Shown here: piece after piece, positions 4,462 to 34,762 of the stretch
How the letters are laid out: every line of letters starts with the position of its first letter
How positions within the stretch are numbered: position 1 is the stretch's first letter
Source: a phage
Direction: 5' to 3' (one strand)
Sequence record: NC_135729.1
Length of the DNA: 64,000 nt
Made by a program: the position numbers and the translations under genes
Notes under the pieces: model-generated
The model's input: only the letters and a program-made list of their open reading frames with translations
Told to the model about the DNA's origin: nothing
The model's database searches: none

Positions 4462-4935
4462 TTAGATAATACCTGCAAGACCTGCGAGGCCAGTAAGAGC
4501 ACCAGTGATGTTATCACGGTTGAGCCATGCATCCAGAATACCGATATCCCAGTCCAGCTGACCTACTTCGGTTCCGTAAGTCAGGTCAGGCTGTTTCTGG
4601 ATCCAACCAATTGTGAAAATACCAGGACCCTGGCTACCTTCCAGCAGAACTGGGAAGAATACCAGACCAGTAATCGATGCCTGTTTCTGCCAGTCAGAAA
4701 GGTAAGCGTTCCATACAGAAGTGTTCTGCAAAGATACAGTCATAACACCAGATTGGTTACGAGACAGGGCCGCAGACATTTCGCCATCCACACCAACGTG
4801 AGGGTAGATGTTGTCTTCGTTTCTTGAAACAACGATCTTGGTGTCAGCAGCGAAGCCAGTGACACGCTGCTGCATCAGGTACAGTTTGACCTTTTTAGGG
4901 TCATACGCATAAGGAGTTAAAATTTGAGTTTCCAT
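4462..4935 (-). CDS. tail tube protein
   Basis: 157-aa ORF directly downstream of the putative sheath gene; size and position typical of contractile-tail tube proteins. Confidence 0.5.
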   Translation of the reverse strand: METQILTPYAYDPKKVKLYLMQQRVTGFAADTKIVVSRNEDNIYPHVGVDGEMSAALSRNQSGVMTVSLQNTSVWNAYLSDWQKQASITGLVFFPVLLEGSQGPGIFTIGWIQKQPDLTYGTEVGQLDWDIGILDAWLNRDNITGALTGLAGLAGII

Positions 4936-4945
4936 CTAGTCTTCC

Positions 4946-6322
4946 TTATTCAGTCATTGCAACAGCATTGGTGGATTTAGAACCAACTTTGTCCAGAAGA
5001 ACGTTGATCCGGATACGAACGAAGTGCAGGGCGTTGTTATACACCAGTTCTACTTTCACACCTTCCAGAACACGAGCAGCCAACTGATTGGTTGGGATTT
5101 CTGCACGTTTAGGAACTGTGATGATCGGGTCGTAGAATACATTATTGTCTTCGTCGAAACCTGTCAGGATCGCACCATTCTTAATGCCAGTGTTGATTGG
5201 GTTGTTCATCAGGACAGACTTGATAACCGGAAGATCATCATCAGACATCTTCATGCTTAAACCCATGTTGGAGCGACGATGCATGTACCCAAACATAGAT
5301 TCTTCAGATCTGAACTTGATCCAGTGTGCAAAACGAATAGCGTCTGCATACTGACCTGAAGCACACTTACCTTCCCAGAAAGCGCCAACACCGTTAATCA
5401 TTCTGTAGAAGTTAACGTGGTTTTCCCAAATAGCCATACGCTGAGTTAAAGTCAGAGACGGTGCAATCACACCTGGCATCTGTTTTAAGTGCAAGCTGTC
5501 GCCGTAAGACGGATCGTTGGATGCCATAGCACCTATGATACCACCCTCCGGGAAGTCCTTATCTGCACGAGGATCGTACATGCCGACACTGTCATATTGT
5601 GCAGCTTTCAGTTTGGTGGCGATGTTATTATCTTTACCAGTCACATCTTCTGCAGTAGAGTAGACATGCAGCTTGTAGTTAGCCTGAGCCCACTTAGCAC
5701 ATGCTTCAATGTCGGTGTGGTCTTCATGGCACAGGAAGTACCAATTGTCACGCTCAGCATTGATCTTATCAACTACTGTAGAAGGTTTTTCAGCATTGGC
5801 GATATTTTTGATTGTATAGTTACCAGTATGGTAACCAACAGTACAGTCACCAGTGATGGTGATAACACCATCAGCAGCCTCTACAGTGATATCGTCCAAG
5901 TTATCATCTGCTTCGATTTTAGTCTTCATTGACTCTGCAATCTGAGTTGCAGCTGTTCCACCAGAGATAGGGACTATCAAAGAGGTATTGTAGCTACCTT
6001 TTGCAATAGTCATTACGACATCGGTATCAGCTGCGGCAGCAATACCTTTAAAATCTACAGTGGTCTTTTCTTTGGCCTGTCTGCCGATCATAACGTATTG
6101 TGGAGGGAATACACCACCAAAAGCTTTTGCTGCAAACTCATACGCTGCAGAGCCTTGTGCGAAACCATCTTCCACCATCTGATCCAGCTCTGCATATACG
6201 CGAGCTCGCTCAGTAAAGTTGTTGTGGATAGCGATGAACAGGGGAGTTTCGAAACCTACAGTGTCAATAGGCTGGGTTCCGAGGTTAACTGTAACATCTA
6301 CCACTTTATCTAAATATGGCAT
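4946..6322 (-). CDS. tail sheath protein
   Basis: 458-aa ORF preceding tube, chaperones and tape measure, the canonical myovirus gene order. Confidence 0.6.
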   Translation of the reverse strand: MPYLDKVVDVTVNLGTQPIDTVGFETPLFIAIHNNFTERARVYAELDQMVEDGFAQGSAAYEFAAKAFGGVFPPQYVMIGRQAKEKTTVDFKGIAAAADTDVVMTIAKGSYNTSLIVPISGGTAATQIAESMKTKIEADDNLDDITVEAADGVITITGDCTVGYHTGNYTIKNIANAEKPSTVVDKINAERDNWYFLCHEDHTDIEACAKWAQANYKLHVYSTAEDVTGKDNNIATKLKAAQYDSVGMYDPRADKDFPEGGIIGAMASNDPSYGDSLHLKQMPGVIAPSLTLTQRMAIWENHVNFYRMINGVGAFWEGKCASGQYADAIRFAHWIKFRSEESMFGYMHRRSNMGLSMKMSDDDLPVIKSVLMNNPINTGIKNGAILTGFDEDNNVFYDPIITVPKRAEIPTNQLAARVLEGVKVELVYNNALHFVRIRINVLLDKVGSKSTNAVAMTE

Positions 6323-16744: not shown

Positions 16745-16821
16745 TGGTCTCCACGGAGTGATTCGAACACTCGACCTCCTGATCCCAAATCAGGCGCTCT
16801 ACCAAGCTGAGCTACGCGGAG
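16745..16821 (-). tRNA. tRNA-Pro (anticodon TGG)
   Basis: Hand-folded cloverleaf: C1-G72 acceptor, D-arm GCTC/GAGC, anticodon loop TTTGGGA, T-loop TTCGAAT, encoded CCA. Confidence 0.8.
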
Positions 16822-16832
16822 TATCTACTATT

Positions 16833-16907
16833 TGGTGGCCCTGGGTGGAATTGAACCACCGTCTGGCGATTATGAGTCGCTTGCTTGAACCTTCCAGCTA
16901 CAGGGCC
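16833..16907 (-). tRNA. tRNA-Met (anticodon CAT; initiator, elongator or Ile2 not resolved)
   Basis: Hand-folded cloverleaf, anticodon loop CTCATAA, T-arm GGTGG/CCACC, encoded CCA. Confidence 0.7.
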
Positions 16908-16908
16908 A

Positions 16909-16983
16909 TGGTGCTGATGGCAGGACTTGAACCCGCAACCTATTGATTACAAATCAATTGCACTACCAATTGTGCTACATCAG
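16909..16983 (-). tRNA. tRNA-Thr (anticodon TGT)
   Basis: Hand-folded cloverleaf, D-arm GCAC/GTGC, anticodon loop TTTGTAA, T-loop TTCAAGT, encoded CCA. Confidence 0.8.
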
Positions 16984-16988
16984 CAAAA

Positions 16989-17087
16989 AGGTGCTAGGCG
17001 GTGGAATCGAACCACCTATGTATTCAACGACTACCTCGTCTATTTTCAGGATTAAAAATCCTCGCCCTTGCCAAAGGGCTTACCTAG
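16989..17087 (-). tRNA. aberrant tRNA-like element (about 97 nt; anticodon unresolved)
   Basis: Canonical acceptor stem, D-arm (GCCC/GGGC) and T-arm (GGTGG-TTCGATT-CCACC), but about 30 nt extra between anticodon-like hairpin and T-arm. Confidence 0.35.
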
Positions 17088-17185
17088 CTCAATATGTTGA
17101 CCATGTTGCTAGTCGGCGATGACGACTGTAACATTTGATAATCCGGTTCTGCTTCCGGCTTTCGCTTAATTGCAAGGTCAACAAT

Positions 17186-17276
17186 GTGGCGGAGAGTAAT
17201 GGAATCGAACCATCATCGAGTCATCCTCAACGGGACGGTTTTCAAGACCGCTTGAGCACCATTGCTCCCTACCCTC
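17186..17276 (-). tRNA. tRNA-Ser (anticodon TGA), type II
   Basis: Acceptor GGAGGGT, anticodon loop CTTGAAA, long variable arm, T-loop TTCGATT, encoded CCA. Confidence 0.7.
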
Positions 17277-17392
17277 CTTTATAAATTATACTGATAATGA
17301 CACTGATTTTCGAGCAGTTAGTGACTAGTATAAACGACGATAAATATCAATGCCATTATCTGTATTATTTATGCATCTAAAAAATATAAATT

Positions 17393-17479
17393 TGGTGGGG
17401 AGTGGTGGAGTCGAACCACCCGAGTCGCAATGACAATAGATTTACAGTCTACACCGCTACCTCTACGGGATAACTCCCC
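17393..17479 (-). tRNA. tRNA-Tyr (anticodon GTA), type II
   Basis: Anticodon loop CTGTAAA; variable arm TGTCATTGCGACTCG closely resembles E. coli tRNA-Tyr; T-arm GGTGG/CCACC; CCA encoded. Confidence 0.75.
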
Positions 17480-17483
17480 AATT

Positions 17484-17558
17484 TGGCACCCCGTACTGGA
17501 CTCGAACCAGTGTCAACGGCTTAGAAGGCCGCTGCTTTATCCACTAAGCTAACAGGGC
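17484..17558 (-). tRNA. tRNA-Arg (anticodon TCT)
   Basis: D-arm GCTT/AAGC, anticodon loop CTTCTAA, T-loop TTCGAGT, encoded CCA. Confidence 0.8.
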
Positions 17559-27603: not shown

Positions 27604-27886
27604 GAAACCTGTAAAAGAGAAATTCGATAAGACAGCTTTTGTATTCGATACACCTCTGGACGATATCATCAGAGGTATGCAAGCCTTGTATCGGAAGGCT
27701 GAATCTGAGCAGTTGTCTGAATCAGAACTTTACTGGCTTGGTTGGTGGGAGTTAAACCTGCCTAAAGCTGAAAGTTCTTGTCTGAGAACTGTTAAAACGT
27801 GCGCCCAAGAAAACGCTGCACTTGGAATCTACCACAAAAGGAAAAGATCAACAAAAAGCTCTCCAAGAAAGACTAAAAAGTCTTGA
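27593..27886 (+). CDS. hypothetical protein
   Basis: 97-aa ORF with basic C-terminus. Confidence 0.35.
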   Translation: MMAKKPVKEKFDKTAFVFDTPLDDIIRGMQALYRKAESEQLSESELYWLGWWELNLPKAESSCLRTVKTCAQENAALGIYHKRKRSTKSSPRKTKKS

Positions 27887-27912
27887 CAAAAGTGTTATTA
27901 ATCTGATATTAT
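27883..27912 (+). promoter_or_regulatory. sigma70-like promoter
   Basis: TTGACA, 18-nt spacer, TATTAT. Confidence 0.55.
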
Positions 27913-29718: not shown

Positions 29719-30344
29719 GAGAGCGTCTATTATCCATAGACCAGTCGTTGACACACACAGCTTGCGTTGTATGGGACGATGGAAAGCCTGTTCATAAGGT
29801 TGTGTTACGAACTCAAAGCTCATCTGCAAAAGAGAAGAAACCAGGGACGGTTTCTTTTGCAACAGCTGCTGAGCGTATTGACTGGATCTGCAAACAGGTC
29901 AGATATTATATCCACACGCATCACGTTGACACCGTGGTTATGGAAGGGCTTTCCTTTGGATCACGCGGGGATGCCACACGTGAACTGGCTGGGTTGTTTT
30001 ACGGTCTTGAAATTATGCTTTGGGATGCCTTAGCTGATTGTGAAAATGACGGCCTGTTTAAGGTCCACACAGTGACACCAACAACTGCCAAAAAGTTTGC
30101 TCGTAGTCATCTTCCTGAAGAACTTGCTTTTGAGGAGAAGAAAAAGCTTGACAAAAAGACAGGTAAAGAGCATACTGTGAAGAAACCTGTTACAATGGAT
30201 AAAAAGTTGATGGTTAAGGCCTGCGAAGTATCTGAACCTGGGTTCCTAGACGGGATCAATTTGGTACAAGGTAAGGCCGATCTCGCAGATGCTTATTGGA
30301 TAGGCAGGGCTCATCTGGAGGGATTATCGCAAAGCGTAAAATAA
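29715..30344 (+). CDS. possible RuvC-like Holliday junction resolvase
   Basis: N-terminal SIDQSLTHTACVVWD and downstream VVMEG/D-rich segments resemble the RuvC fold; weak. Confidence 0.35.
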   Translation: MRERLLSIDQSLTHTACVVWDDGKPVHKVVLRTQSSSAKEKKPGTVSFATAAERIDWICKQVRYYIHTHHVDTVVMEGLSFGSRGDATRELAGLFYGLEIMLWDALADCENDGLFKVHTVTPTTAKKFARSHLPEELAFEEKKKLDKKTGKEHTVKKPVTMDKKLMVKACEVSEPGFLDGINLVQGKADLADAYWIGRAHLEGLSQSVK

Positions 30345-30901
30345 GAAAGAAAGCTGTCAAAGCCCCAGTTCATAACGGGTGGTTAAAAGATTCTAAGGAC
30401 ATAGCCAACTTTCGAAAAGAATTGTCAGAGGAGCAGGATGGTCTTGATCCGATCTTGTGCGAGCCACTTCGTAAGCCTTGTTTAGATCATGATCATCTGA
30501 CTGGTCGTTGCAGGGGTGTTTTGTCTCAATGCACTAATACCTTTGAGGGGTATGTGCTTAAATACTGGATGAAATACTGTAACGAGTATACAGATTGCAG
30601 TTTATCAGAGGCGTTGCGCCGGATGGCTGACTATTTGGAGAAAGACTACAGCGACTTCCCGCTCCACAAAAACTACAGAGATGATATGACAAAGTTCTTG
30701 AGGAGATGCTCTAAAGCTACGATTATTGCACGAGCAGAATCAGATCTCAATCTTGTCATTGATCCGGAGTGCACCAAGCATGAGGCTATTGAGTTCTACA
30801 TGCAAGAGTTTATAAAGAAAACTGAGGAGAGAGATTTCTATGGGGATGAAAAAGGTATTCAATCCTTGCGACTCAGTCCTGATCAGGATGAAATACCGTA
30901 A
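30296..30901 (+). CDS. endonuclease VII-like junction-resolving enzyme
   Basis: LDHDHLTGRCRGVLSQCTNTFEG parallels the T4 endo VII motif; 5' end overlaps upstream ORF, start uncertain. Confidence 0.5.
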   Translation: MDRQGSSGGIIAKRKIRKKAVKAPVHNGWLKDSKDIANFRKELSEEQDGLDPILCEPLRKPCLDHDHLTGRCRGVLSQCTNTFEGYVLKYWMKYCNEYTDCSLSEALRRMADYLEKDYSDFPLHKNYRDDMTKFLRRCSKATIIARAESDLNLVIDPECTKHEAIEFYMQEFIKKTEERDFYGDEKGIQSLRLSPDQDEIP

Positions 30902-31073: not shown

Positions 31074-32057
31074 ATGATGACAAAGTTAACTCTTGAGCAA
31101 ATTTTAACACTAAAGCAACAAGGATACACTAATAGACAAATTGCTCGTGAATTTTTAGGCCGTGAGTCACGTGAGAGCTGGATCCGACTACAGCTTAAAC
31201 GTGCACAAGAGAATATGTCAGAGATTGTAGGAGAAGCAACGGAGCGCTTCCTTGAAGAGCACAAAGGTGCTAAAGTTTGGGTGTATGATACAGAGACATC
31301 CCCAACAAACGGCTGGTTCTTTGGGCACTATAAGACCAACATTCAAACCTGCGGTATTGAAATTATGCCCTACATGCTAACTTTCGCAGGTAAGTGGTTA
31401 GACAGTCCTAGTGTGGTTGACTGCGCTCTTCCTGATTACAAAATGTGGGATGAGGATATTCACAATGATCTCGAATTGATTCAGGATTTGTGGTATTATC
31501 TGGATAAATGTGATGTCGCAGTAGCCCACAATTCAGGTTTTGACTGTGGGTGGGCCAACCAACGATTTGCATTTCACGGATTGCCTCCAACAAGCCCCTA
31601 CAAAGAGGTTGACACCCTTAAAATGATCAAGAAGGCATTCCGTTTGAATGCAAACACTTTGGAGTATGCATGCAAATACTTCCAACTTGCCCGACAGAAA
31701 CTGATTGACCACACATTTGAAATGTGGATCAAGTGTGTTCACGGTGATCTTGAGGCGTTTAAACAGATGCGGGAGTACAATGTTGGCGATATCCTATCTC
31801 TGGAAGGCCTGTATTTGCTGGCTCGCCCGTTTGCTAAGCAGCACCCCAACATGTCATTGTACTACCAGGATGAGGAGCCAAAAGTTCGTTGCCCACGCTG
31901 TGGTGGAGAACACCTTCACGAGGAAGAAGCTTTGGCGTATACTCAACTGAGTGCATTTAAAACATACCGCTGCGAAGGTTGTGGATCTGTTGTTCGTGAC
32001 CGTAACAACATCCGCACCAGAGAAGAAATGAAAAATACCCTGATTCAGATAATCTAA
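31074..32057 (+). CDS. DEDD-family 3'-5' exonuclease with N-terminal HTH and C-terminal zinc ribbon
   Basis: Exo I YDTETS, Exo II HNSGFDCGW, Exo III-like YNVGD; C-terminal CPRCGG...CEGCGS. Confidence 0.55.
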   Translation: MMTKLTLEQILTLKQQGYTNRQIAREFLGRESRESWIRLQLKRAQENMSEIVGEATERFLEEHKGAKVWVYDTETSPTNGWFFGHYKTNIQTCGIEIMPYMLTFAGKWLDSPSVVDCALPDYKMWDEDIHNDLELIQDLWYYLDKCDVAVAHNSGFDCGWANQRFAFHGLPPTSPYKEVDTLKMIKKAFRLNANTLEYACKYFQLARQKLIDHTFEMWIKCVHGDLEAFKQMREYNVGDILSLEGLYLLARPFAKQHPNMSLYYQDEEPKVRCPRCGGEHLHEEEALAYTQLSAFKTYRCEGCGSVVRDRNNIRTREEMKNTLIQII

Positions 32058-32064
32058 CAATTAT

Positions 32065-32093
32065 AGGGAGGCTTGCGCCTCCCTTTTCCTTTT
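32065..32093 (+). terminator. intrinsic terminator
   Basis: AGGGAGGC-ttgc-GCCTCCCT followed by TTTTCCTTTT. Confidence 0.6.
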
Positions 32094-32921
32094 GGAGGCA
32101 CTTTGAGCAAGAAAGAGTCCAACGACAAATACTACACAAACCCTGAGTATGCAGAATATCTTGTTGGTAAAGTAAAAGATAAGTATGGGAATTGTGCATA
32201 CGTTGAGCCTTCTGCTGGAAGGGGTTCTTTTTCAAAACTATTTTCAGAGATACTGTCGTACGATTTAGTACCAGATCCTGAATTTGAAGGACCAACACCG
32301 TGCATTCAGGCAAACTTCTTGGAGGTGCATCCCAAGGCAGATGTCTTCATAGGTAACCCACCATTTGGCAAGAATTCATCCTTAGCTTGCAAATTCTTTA
32401 ACCATTGTGCATCATTGCTAGAGCTTGGAGGGGCTATAGCCTTCATCTTGCCACGGACATTTGAAAAAATATTTTTTGCAAACAAACTGGACATGTCGAT
32501 GCACCTTGTCTACAGCGAAAGGTGCCCTAAGAATTCGTTTTTACTTAATGGCAAACCTTATGACGTGCCATGTGTTTTCCAAATTTGGGAGAAAAAGGCG
32601 TGCAATAGGGATCCTGTAGAGATTGGAGAGAATAAGTTATTTTCTTTTAGCACACCAGATGACTACGACTTCTGTGTAAGACGTGTTGGGTATAATGCTG
32701 GAAAAGTATTGGGGGATGATGACCCAAAATCTGAAGAATCAACATATTTCATAAAATCTTTAGTTAACGGTGTTGACAGAGTGTTTGCTGAATGCTATTC
32801 TTCTTTTCAAGAAGAAGCAGGTAAGACTGCTGGAATGAAGAGTATAGGTAAGAAAGAACTACAATACATTTTGGAGACCAGGTATGATCAAAAGCATAGA
32901 CTTGACCAAAGAACTTACTGA
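32073..32921 (+). CDS. N6-adenine DNA methyltransferase (gamma class)
   Basis: Motif I VEPSAGRGSF and motif IV GNPPFG; track start lies inside the terminator hairpin, so true start probably TTG near 32103 after GGAGG. Confidence 0.6.
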   Translation: MRLPFPFGGTLSKKESNDKYYTNPEYAEYLVGKVKDKYGNCAYVEPSAGRGSFSKLFSEILSYDLVPDPEFEGPTPCIQANFLEVHPKADVFIGNPPFGKNSSLACKFFNHCASLLELGGAIAFILPRTFEKIFFANKLDMSMHLVYSERCPKNSFLLNGKPYDVPCVFQIWEKKACNRDPVEIGENKLFSFSTPDDYDFCVRRVGYNAGKVLGDDDPKSEESTYFIKSLVNGVDRVFAECYSSFQEEAGKTAGMKSIGKKELQYILETRYDQKHRLDQRTY

Positions 32922-33342
32922 TGCAAAAGCTTTTGGTGAGACAGCGGTACAAAGAGGACAGGCGATGGGACTGGCACTACCTTTCGTCTTAAAAGAGCAC
33001 TTTACAGATTTTCAACTTATCAAAGGTGATAAGGGAATGCTTATCCTGGAGCATAAGTTGAGTAAGAAACGCTATAAAGTCGTTTTTAATTCTAAAGCTC
33101 CAACAAAACTGGGATTCAGAACTTACAATCTTAACCCATCCTACACTAAGGGTGTTGGAAGGGTAGAACAACAGCATTTCAGTGCCAGAGCTTCTTTAGC
33201 CCCTTTGATGCTAAATTTCTCAGGGGTGGCTTTAGGATACCTTGATAAGAAAAGGGTTCTTCATGTTCGTTTCACAGACTTTGTAACGCTTTTAGCTAAC
33301 AACGAGGTTGATGAGAAGGGACGTGTAAAAACAAACTTCTAA
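32884..33342 (+). CDS. hypothetical protein overlapping methyltransferase 3' end
   Basis: 152-aa ORF overlapping the methyltransferase by about 38 nt. Confidence 0.35.
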   Translation: MIKSIDLTKELTDAKAFGETAVQRGQAMGLALPFVLKEHFTDFQLIKGDKGMLILEHKLSKKRYKVVFNSKAPTKLGFRTYNLNPSYTKGVGRVEQQHFSARASLAPLMLNFSGVALGYLDKKRVLHVRFTDFVTLLANNEVDEKGRVKTNF

Positions 33343-33357
33343 TAACGCATAGTATGA

Positions 33358-34175: not shown

Positions 34176-34762
34176 TCGGAATTGATGTAGATCTGACACT
34201 GGTAGATTCAGGAACAGCATGGTGGGAGTGGTTGGAGCGTTTGTATGGTCCAGCCAGTAAGACAGTAGCTAAACCTTCTAATGGGCTAATGTATTACGAT
34301 CTGTCAAAGTATTGGCCTGATCGTCCCAAAGAAAACATCATAGGACCTTTTGATTTCTGGAGTGATCCGTTCCTCTACGACTTCCTTAAGCCTGAAGAGG
34401 GGGCTATTGAGGTTATGAAAGATTTGGTGGCTCGTGGTCACAAGCTTGCATTTATCTCGGTATGCAAGAAAGGTCACCTTGCATCTAAATCAAGGTTCTT
34501 AAAGCGTTGGACCAGTGATTTTATGGATCTGGACGATCACACCCAGGGCCACGGCTTCTACGCCACACATTTCAAAGGTAATGTGGCTGTAGATGTTATA
34601 ATTGACGACAGGCATGAATACCTGAACCAATTCGCTTCACGACCTGAAGTTATTAAAATCCTAAAAGACACACCTTATGAGCAATTCGAGGAGTTAAAGG
34701 TCAGTGTTGACTATACCACTAATAGCTGGTATAAAATAGGAAAGTTTTTAGAAGGTATTTGA
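34169..34762 (+). CDS. HAD-family phosphatase (possible 5'-deoxyribonucleotidase)
   Basis: N-terminal HAD motif I GIDVDLTLVDS. Confidence 0.5.
   Translation: MLIGIDVDLTLVDSGTAWWEWLERLYGPASKTVAKPSNGLMYYDLSKYWPDRPKENIIGPFDFWSDPFLYDFLKPEEGAIEVMKDLVARGHKLAFISVCKKGHLASKSRFLKRWTSDFMDLDDHTQGHGFYATHFKGNVAVDVIIDDRHEYLNQFASRPEVIKILKDTPYEQFEELKVSVDYTTNSWYKIGKFLEGI

Follow-up and report, generated by a model that had tools for sequence, protein, structure and literature searches.

Gene content and identity of the locus

The window analysed here is a stretch of 64,000 nucleotides of phage DNA (NC_135729.1), and by sequence it is that of an rV5-like Vequintavirus, a phage of E. coli. The 3 kb around the locus share 99.9% identity with Escherichia phages slur16 and rV5_ev147, and at least 90% with 120 Vequintavirus records (rV5-like myoviruses). 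Near the locus, window coordinates equal those of rV5 (DQ832317) minus 45186. The features are as follows:

27883..27912, + strand: promoter P93, sigma-70-type, TTGACA-18-TATTAT with TG, 11/12 matches; nearest upstream promoter (Table S4, GenBank regulatory feature)
31074..32057, + strand: DnaQ-like DNA polymerase exonuclease subunit, orthologue of rV5 gp99 (PHROG 403, E = 1e-110; public annotations)
32060..33343, + strand: cassette of hairpin, leader, methylase gene and gp101 (blastn boundaries 32060/32065 and 33342/33343)
32065..32084, + strand: stem-loop AGGGAGGC-TTGC-GCCTCCCT, 8 bp with 6 G-C pairs, corresponding to rV5 terminator t099
32073..32102, + strand: non-coding leader, listed mechanically as the first 10 codons of the ORF (indels, family N-termini, curated records)
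32084..32093, + strand: U-tract TTTTCCTTTT, the terminator tail, interrupted by CC and kept in cassette copies
32094..32098, + strand: Shine-Dalgarno (SD) sequence GGAGG, with a 4-nt spacer (CACT) to TTG 32103; invariant in all cassette copies
32103..32921, + strand: putative N6-adenine methyltransferase gene, gamma-class, Type II-like, orthologue of rV5 gp100; TTG start, 272 aa
32884..33342, + strand: gp101, 152 aa (PHROG 9938), with a 38-nt overlap with the methylase gene
34707..34734, + strand: promoter P105, the next published one downstream (Table S4; 2 mismatches in the window copy)

The stop codon of the exonuclease gene occupies 32055-32057 and the hairpin begins 7 nt further on. In rV5 the same locus carries gene 100, a putative DNA N6-adenine methyltransferase (GenBank DQ832317), whose product is 98.5% identical to that of the window and which likewise starts with TTG at the corresponding position. 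The rV5 hairpin t099 matches that of the window except for a single base at the bottom of the stem, and there is no essential difference between the two loci. Gene 100 was described as an adenine methyltransferase of 272 aa by Kropinski et al. (2013, Virol J 10:76; PMC3606486), a paper that contains no discussion of the TTG start, of read-through or of cassette mobility. The methylase gene, its TTG start and the terminator were all put on record for rV5 between 2006 and 2013.

Three further observations concern the window and its relatives. A cluster of five tRNA genes (Rfam; 16748-17558, minus strand) corresponds to the published rV5 tRNA cluster. The start of the EndoVII gene (30296-30901) is uncertain, being an ATT codon in the rV5 record (locus 30323) versus TTG 30296 in the mechanical ORF. 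Finally, about 20 GenBank ‘Campylobacter phage’ records (MG0656xx; hits H22, H26, H36 and others; stated host C. jejuni) show, across the locus, identities above 98% to E. coli phages of the rV5-like type, and these genomes are probably mislabelled or contaminant.

The methyltransferase

In the 272-aa form, motif X (YYTNP, residues 10-14) is followed by motif I (EPSAGRGSF, 35-43), motif IV (NPPF, 85-88) and a C-terminal domain, which is the gamma-class layout X-I-IV-TRD. The sequence contains the segments VEPSAGRGSF and GNPPFG, and across 113 homologues motifs X, I and IV show no or almost no variation. The AF2 model has a pLDDT of 93.8, and its best solved matches in Foldseek are CamA, M.BseCI, M.TaqI and a Type I M subunit (E-values of 1e-6 to 1e-5, probability 1.0); the RNA methyltransferases TrmN, Trm5 and PH1948 score similarly on the Rossmann core. 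At the sequence level, the REBASE-derived PADLOC model MTase_II matches the full length with an E-value of 3e-34 and PHROG 799 (‘DNA methyltransferase’) with 3e-13, whereas Pfam Eco57I gives 16 bits against a cut-off of 25.3. Neither NCBIfam, nor Pfam at its default threshold, nor a single-protein sequence search of the PDB returned a match. Motif order, the TaqI/BseCI/CamA fold and the PADLOC match bear out the gamma-class motifs recognised in the initial annotation.

Profile comparison with the PDB produced weak matches only (Ta1320, TaqI and METTL5). As the scores of Ta1320 and METTL5 are close to that of TaqI, sequence profiles alone cannot separate DNA from RNA m6A methyltransferases. In bacteria (Poseidonibacter and a JGI contig), homologues of the enzyme are followed by small, mutually similar ORFs with a weak match to the PADLOC model of Type II restriction enzymes. 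Together with the Type II match of the methylase itself, these restriction-enzyme-like neighbours make DNA the likely substrate. Based on sequence and predicted structure, the gp100 orthologue is thus a putative orphan Type II-like N6-adenine methyltransferase of the gamma class. It shares motif order and catalytic-domain fold with M.TaqI, M.BseCI and CamA, but these have 420-580 aa compared with its 272 aa; query-normalised TM-scores are 0.4-0.5 and its C-terminal half is unmatched. Moreover, the window enzyme falls below Pfam thresholds and is encoded by a phage with no recognisable restriction partner. The gene is under strong constraint, with dN/dS of ~0.04 at dS of ~1.6-1.9.

Two of the small ORFs that follow bacterial methylases (L089 5805-6404 and L091 5788-6471) share an N-terminal EQSHG..FE motif. 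Such ORFs may encode the cognate restriction enzymes, and the target motif might be deduced from them.

The start codon of the methylase gene

The mechanical ORF list opens the methylase frame at TTG 32073, a codon formed by bases 1-3 of the hairpin loop. This position is the first TTG of the longest mechanical ORF and carries no annotation. In the curated records of rV5 (ORF 100, 77289..78107), slur16 (RefSeq), the BASEL phages and nimi, the CDS starts at the equivalent of 32103 and encodes 272 aa. N-termini of the family, aligned for 28 members, begin with MSK(x)4-5(L)DQYYT exactly at the position of 32103. In phage WM and in two uncultured phage contigs described below (L095 and L097), there is one additional nucleotide between the hairpin and the SD, and the loop TTG is out of the methylase frame; this is decisive in showing that 32073-32102 is not coding. 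Between the hairpin and motif X/I, TTG 32103 is the sole ATG, GTG or TTG in frame. By sequence comparison, the methylase initiates at TTG/UUG 32103 behind GGAGG, and the ‘start inside the hairpin’ is an artefact of the longest-ORF rule. The initial annotation had regarded 32073 as the annotated start, which no curated record supports, all of them using 32103. It had also singled out the TTG after GGAGG as the only in-frame initiator past the hairpin, and the frame scan, the curated records and the family N-termini agree that this non-ATG codon is the real start.

Could the long ORF nevertheless be translated from the loop TTG into a 282-aa protein? An open frame does extend from 32073, the TTG has GGGAGG shortly ahead of it, and one automated metagenome call (P0004, 282 aa) uses an equivalent start. 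However, this GGGAGG, which ends 1 nt ahead of TTG 32073, belongs to the stem as its base-paired 5′ arm; its likeness to an SD is probably what led the automated call to the long ORF. In WM, L095 and L097 an indel interrupts the frame, more than 100 homologues lack the 10 additional residues, which show no conservation, and AF2 leaves even residues 1-4 of the short form unstructured. We give the 282-aa product practically no chance.

Anatomy of the hairpin and the leader

The stem AGGGAGGC/GCCTCCCT with its 4-nt loop TTGC has a folding energy of -15.2 kcal/mol. Eight of the ten positions of the U-tract TTTTCCTTTT are T, the run being broken by CC (UUUUCCUUUU), and the tract directly abuts the SD GGAGG. 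In our terminator scan, 32065-32084 was the best-ranked terminator-like site within 27-38 kb. The site has the attributes of an intrinsic terminator: a G+C-rich stem within the 5-14 bp rule, a short loop, a U-rich tail and an intergenic position past a stop codon on the coding strand. A d'Aubenton-Carafa-type score is positive (25.6). On the minus strand the tail is not T-rich. The 48-nt leader folds with z = -3.5, a value equalled by 1 of 200 shuffles. About 15 distinct terminator-like hairpins (33 raw hits) were found in the window, compared with 4.3 raw hits in simulated sequence; the hairpin sequence itself is present only once in the window, and Rfam gave no match at the hairpin. As a physical description, the initial claim of a strong terminator hairpin with a T-run over the first 10 codons of the ORF was correct, and the scan, the folding z-score and the single occurrence show the hairpin to be more than a chance feature. 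The CC interruption of the U-tract, for its part, suggests that the strength of the terminator would be sub-maximal.

We also considered pairings that could compete with the hairpin or mask the start. In read-through RNA, UUUCC of the U-tract can pair with the GGAGG of the SD (32087-32098), but the resulting helix of 5 bp, two of them G-U, is weak; the CC is retained in five of the seven cassette variants. A 3′-arm/SD pairing (GCCUCC/GGAGGC, -11.6 kcal/mol) needs the 5′ arm to be absent and was dismissed as irrelevant to read-through RNA. Sequestration of the SD and start by a downstream helix (GG.ACUUU/AGAGU.CC) was likewise rejected, being disrupted by synonymous changes in the diverged cassette of contig L098. 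No antiterminator, mutually exclusive RNA structure or control factor was found, and the terminator hairpin dominates the ensemble.

A mobile methylase-gp101 cassette

Uncultured phage contigs from pig gut (L093-L099, up to 130 kb) are ~80% identical to the window at the nucleotide level over the cassette only. There the cassette follows leftward genes (RNA ligase and others) and a divergent region of ~780 nt free of ORFs; in L098 it ends in a strong terminator or hairpin. No ORF ends just upstream of the hairpin in L098, where the hairpin leads the first gene of a rightward unit. The cassette is missing at this site in Seunavirus and Certrevirus. The two-gene cassette with its hairpin leader therefore also occurs in another phage context, an observation that is new but modest. 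The G+C content of the cassette (0.39-0.42 versus 0.43-0.46) is slightly lower and not diagnostic.

Between cassette copies, identity from the hairpin to the TTG is 72-90%, compared with 49-58% at fourfold-degenerate sites of the methylase gene. Two pairs of the stem change on both sides (G-C to A-U and C-G to U-A), and pairing is retained in 93% of cells. The covariation score was reached by 27 of 500 shuffles and by no slid register; with seven distinct sequences from two clades in the set, this support is modest. Comparison of the copies indicates that the hairpin and the leader are under selection and conserved beyond chance.

The constant neighbour of the methylase is gp101, which lies downstream with the 38-nt overlap in Vequintavirus and in the pig-gut contigs. 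The gp101 homologue of Phapecoctavirus (L005 1060-1491) is 30% identical and is found upstream of the methylase, i.e. in swapped order. The family is tiny: a search of 5.8 billion sequences yielded 5 clusters, and 7 matches were found among 1.8 billion representatives. Pfam, NCBIfam and PADLOC gave no match, and the AF2 model, with a pLDDT of 36, is unusable. A D..ExK motif proved to be apparent only, as it is not conserved, and the similarity of gp101 to the restriction-enzyme-like neighbours of bacterial methylases is at chance level.

In the pig-gut contigs the ORF-free region upstream of the cassette (L098 4437-5180, also L095 1-790) deserves mention by itself. Its part 4600-5180 folds with z = -3.7, matched by none of 100 shuffles, and neither an Rfam family nor a match in phage databases was found for it. 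The region may be a structured RNA of a new type or a long leader.

The TTG start in distant relatives

The UUG start is kept in Vequintavirus, in the pig-gut cassette, in Phapecoctavirus and in the loci L010 and L064. The Phapecoctavirus enzyme is 54% identical at the amino acid level, and its gene begins with GGAGG-N4-TTG AGC AAG right after the stop of the gp101 homologue, without a hairpin. In L010 (46% identity) and L064 (39%) TTG occupies the same codon. Relatives that lack the hairpin thus retain the TTG start at 39-54% identity. GAP32 and L015 start with ATG, as does a clade of giant-virus sequences, in which the N-termini are longer. From this distribution, the TTG start is independent of the hairpin and older than it; its persistence in distant hairpin-less relatives is new, though modest. 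In rV5, 3 of the 78 CDSs in the stretch examined start with TTG, so that such a start is uncommon there and not exceptional. The methyltransferase family is also abundant in giant-virus MAGs, where members on GVMAG contigs (loci L019, L025, L027-L030 and others) show ~35-38% identity.

Terminators followed by ribosome-binding sites in rV5-like phages

Kropinski et al. predicted 20 terminators in rV5 with ARNold/MFOLD, among them t099 (PMC3606486, Table S4: 77251..77279, + strand, GGGGAGGCTTGCGCCTCCCTTTTCCTTTT, -15.3 kcal/mol). On the published map, genes 100-104 sit between t099 and P105 and have no promoter of their own. No promoter was predicted between P93 (27883) and the SD of the methylase, and the interval from the gp99 stop to the SD contained no sigma-70 promoter in our scan; an mRNA that carries the SD and originates from a promoter further upstream has to run through hairpin and U-tract. 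A promoter-like site within the methylase gene (32773-32801, 10/12 matches) is not conserved in the diverged cassette of L098 and was treated as a chance occurrence.

The arrangement turned out to be widespread. According to Table S4 and the rV5 feature table, seven terminators fall within 50 kb of rV5, and for six of them the next start on the same strand comes within 9-21 nt (t050, 11 nt; t060, 21; t064, 14; t099, 9; t109, 13; t122, 14), and t052 is the only one of the seven with an intervening promoter. Two other members of Vequintavirinae, Seunavirus EspYZU15 and Certrevirus CR3, have neither the methylase nor gp101 at this site. Their gene order is exonuclease, gp102-like, gp103-like and on to ThyX; straight after the exonuclease stop they have a non-homologous hairpin and T-run of their own, with canonical uninterrupted U-tracts, then an SD and ATG. 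Judged by these sequences, a terminator followed by a ribosome-binding site is standard operon punctuation in rV5-like phages and not specific to the methylase. Because this geometry stands ahead of genes that need to be expressed (nucleotide metabolism, e.g. ThyX), the terminators are presumably leaky. The regulatory device for the methylase that had been suggested as possible is thus not supported as something special to this gene, the same geometry recurring in 6/7 rV5 terminators and in genera without the methylase.

Operon-internal intrinsic terminators of partial efficiency are well known, an example being T-phi of T7, located after gene 10. The window shares with this type a G+C-rich hairpin and U-tract within a co-oriented block, followed by a ribosome-binding site and no new promoter. 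It differs in that its U-tract is interrupted by CC and its terminator is a predicted one.

Expression of the methylase and alternative explanations

The explanation that we favour, and consider probable, is that UUG 32103 behind the strong GGAGG serves as the initiator, preceded by a non-coding leader in which t099 acts as a partial terminator, the methylase being expressed by read-through. Under this scenario, t099 would probably stop only part of the transcripts arriving from the early promoter P93, and the rest would extend into the methylase gene, gp101 and genes 102-104. Methylase output would then be kept low by the combination of damped read-through, the weak UUG and possibly the UUUCC/GGAGG pairing. 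As the gp99 stop lies only 7 nt from the hairpin, a ribosome completing gp99 would reach over the 5′ arm and could itself lower termination. We infer that termination is real and partial and that expression is low; dependence of methylase expression on read-through is plausible, given the map. Transcript 3′ ends, RNA-seq and protein data for rV5-like phages were not found in the literature searched. Some observations weigh against the favoured explanation, the interrupted U-tract being one of them. The promoter-like site at 32773-32801 could feed gp101 and later genes, and the hairpin moves with the cassette into L098, where no upstream ORF ends nearby; this transfer suits a leader tied to the methylase no less than an operon terminator of the general kind.

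The last point also bears on a dedicated conditional switch, in which antitermination or attenuation would time an anti-restriction methylase. Hairpin, U-tract, SD, spacer and TTG do move as a unit with methylase-gp101 and are under purifying selection, the L098 hairpin leads its rightward unit behind a long, strongly folding region without ORFs, and the UUG start is unusually persistent in the clade. Yet the same geometry precedes many unrelated rV5 genes and occurs in genera lacking the methylase, competing pairings are weak or unconserved with no antiterminator structure found, relatives hold the TTG without any hairpin, and Vequintavirinae are reported to be exceptionally sensitive to restriction-modification (RM). 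We therefore regard such a switch as unlikely. We are just as doubtful about a related idea, namely that the leader is a portable cis-regulatory module of the mobile cassette, setting methylase dosage or timing by attenuation and possibly controlled by the basic protein gp101; the analogy would be with the controller proteins of RM systems, which set methylase levels.

Other readings do not rest on termination. U-rich tracts ahead of an SD are known to favour initiation, and the element could act mainly post-transcriptionally, as a stabilising 5′/3′ stem-loop with a pyrimidine tract on which S1 lands the ribosome to offset the UUG. That the CC-interrupted tract lies directly against the SD, that the module is conserved in L098 with no gene ending upstream, and that promoterless downstream genes still need expression would all suit this role. 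It is nevertheless rather unlikely, as stem, loop and tail obey the rules of intrinsic terminators, ARNold called the site independently, the d'Aubenton-Carafa-type score (25.6) is positive, and the analogous hairpins of CR3 and EspYZU15 have canonical U-tracts. Mobile cassettes flanked by stem-loops have been described in T4-type phages, and the hairpin might in a comparable way be mainly a boundary at the DNA level, i.e. a recombination junction for exchange of the methylase-gp101 cassette. The homology with the pig-gut contigs starts 0-5 nt from the 5′ edge of the hairpin and stops at the gp101 stop, at the corresponding site the sister genera lack the cassette and possess hairpins of their own that are not homologous, and the L098 cassette ends in another strong hairpin. 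However, there is one independent second context only, the hairpin is not repeated elsewhere in the window, and compensatory changes reflect selection on pairing, which is expected of an RNA element and not required of a scar. This makes a mere junction very unlikely. Returning to partial termination with initiation at UUG 32103, much of the initial annotation is compatible with it. The hairpin, T-run, GGAGG, TTG and methylase motifs were correctly observed, and the gamma-class enzyme, the TTG initiator and the crossing of the hairpin by transcripts survive as interpretation; the annotated start, the methylase-specific device and the anti-restriction role are unsupported.

In this phage group such an arrangement is normal; we regard the finding as ordinary, with nothing in it to suggest a new mechanism. 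Its main value is corrective, since the longest-ORF reading puts the start codon in a terminator loop. Beyond that, it adds that unrelated phage backbones share a mobile two-gene methylase cassette which takes the terminator along, that a weak UUG start is conserved well beyond the genus, and that a terminator directly before a ribosome-binding site is operon punctuation of the rV5-like type. The residual interest lies in the mobile, leader-bearing methylase-gp101 cassette. If the leader were indeed a dosage device, it would be an example of a phage holding an orphan methylase low.

Possible role in anti-restriction

Orphan methyltransferases of phages, such as the alpha-class Dam enzymes of T4, T1 and P1, have a demonstrated protective role against restriction. 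Like them, the window enzyme is a stand-alone adenine methyltransferase of a lytic phage. In contrast to these protective alpha-class enzymes, it belongs to the gamma class and comes from a phage group reported to be RM-sensitive. In the BASEL study, Vequintavirinae were ‘exceptionally susceptible’ to the RM systems tested (PMC8594841), with which the initial proposal of an anti-restriction methylase conflicts. This role is unsupported, and a literature search found no methylome of an rV5-like phage. Protection against one specific cognate system outside the BASEL set is possible.
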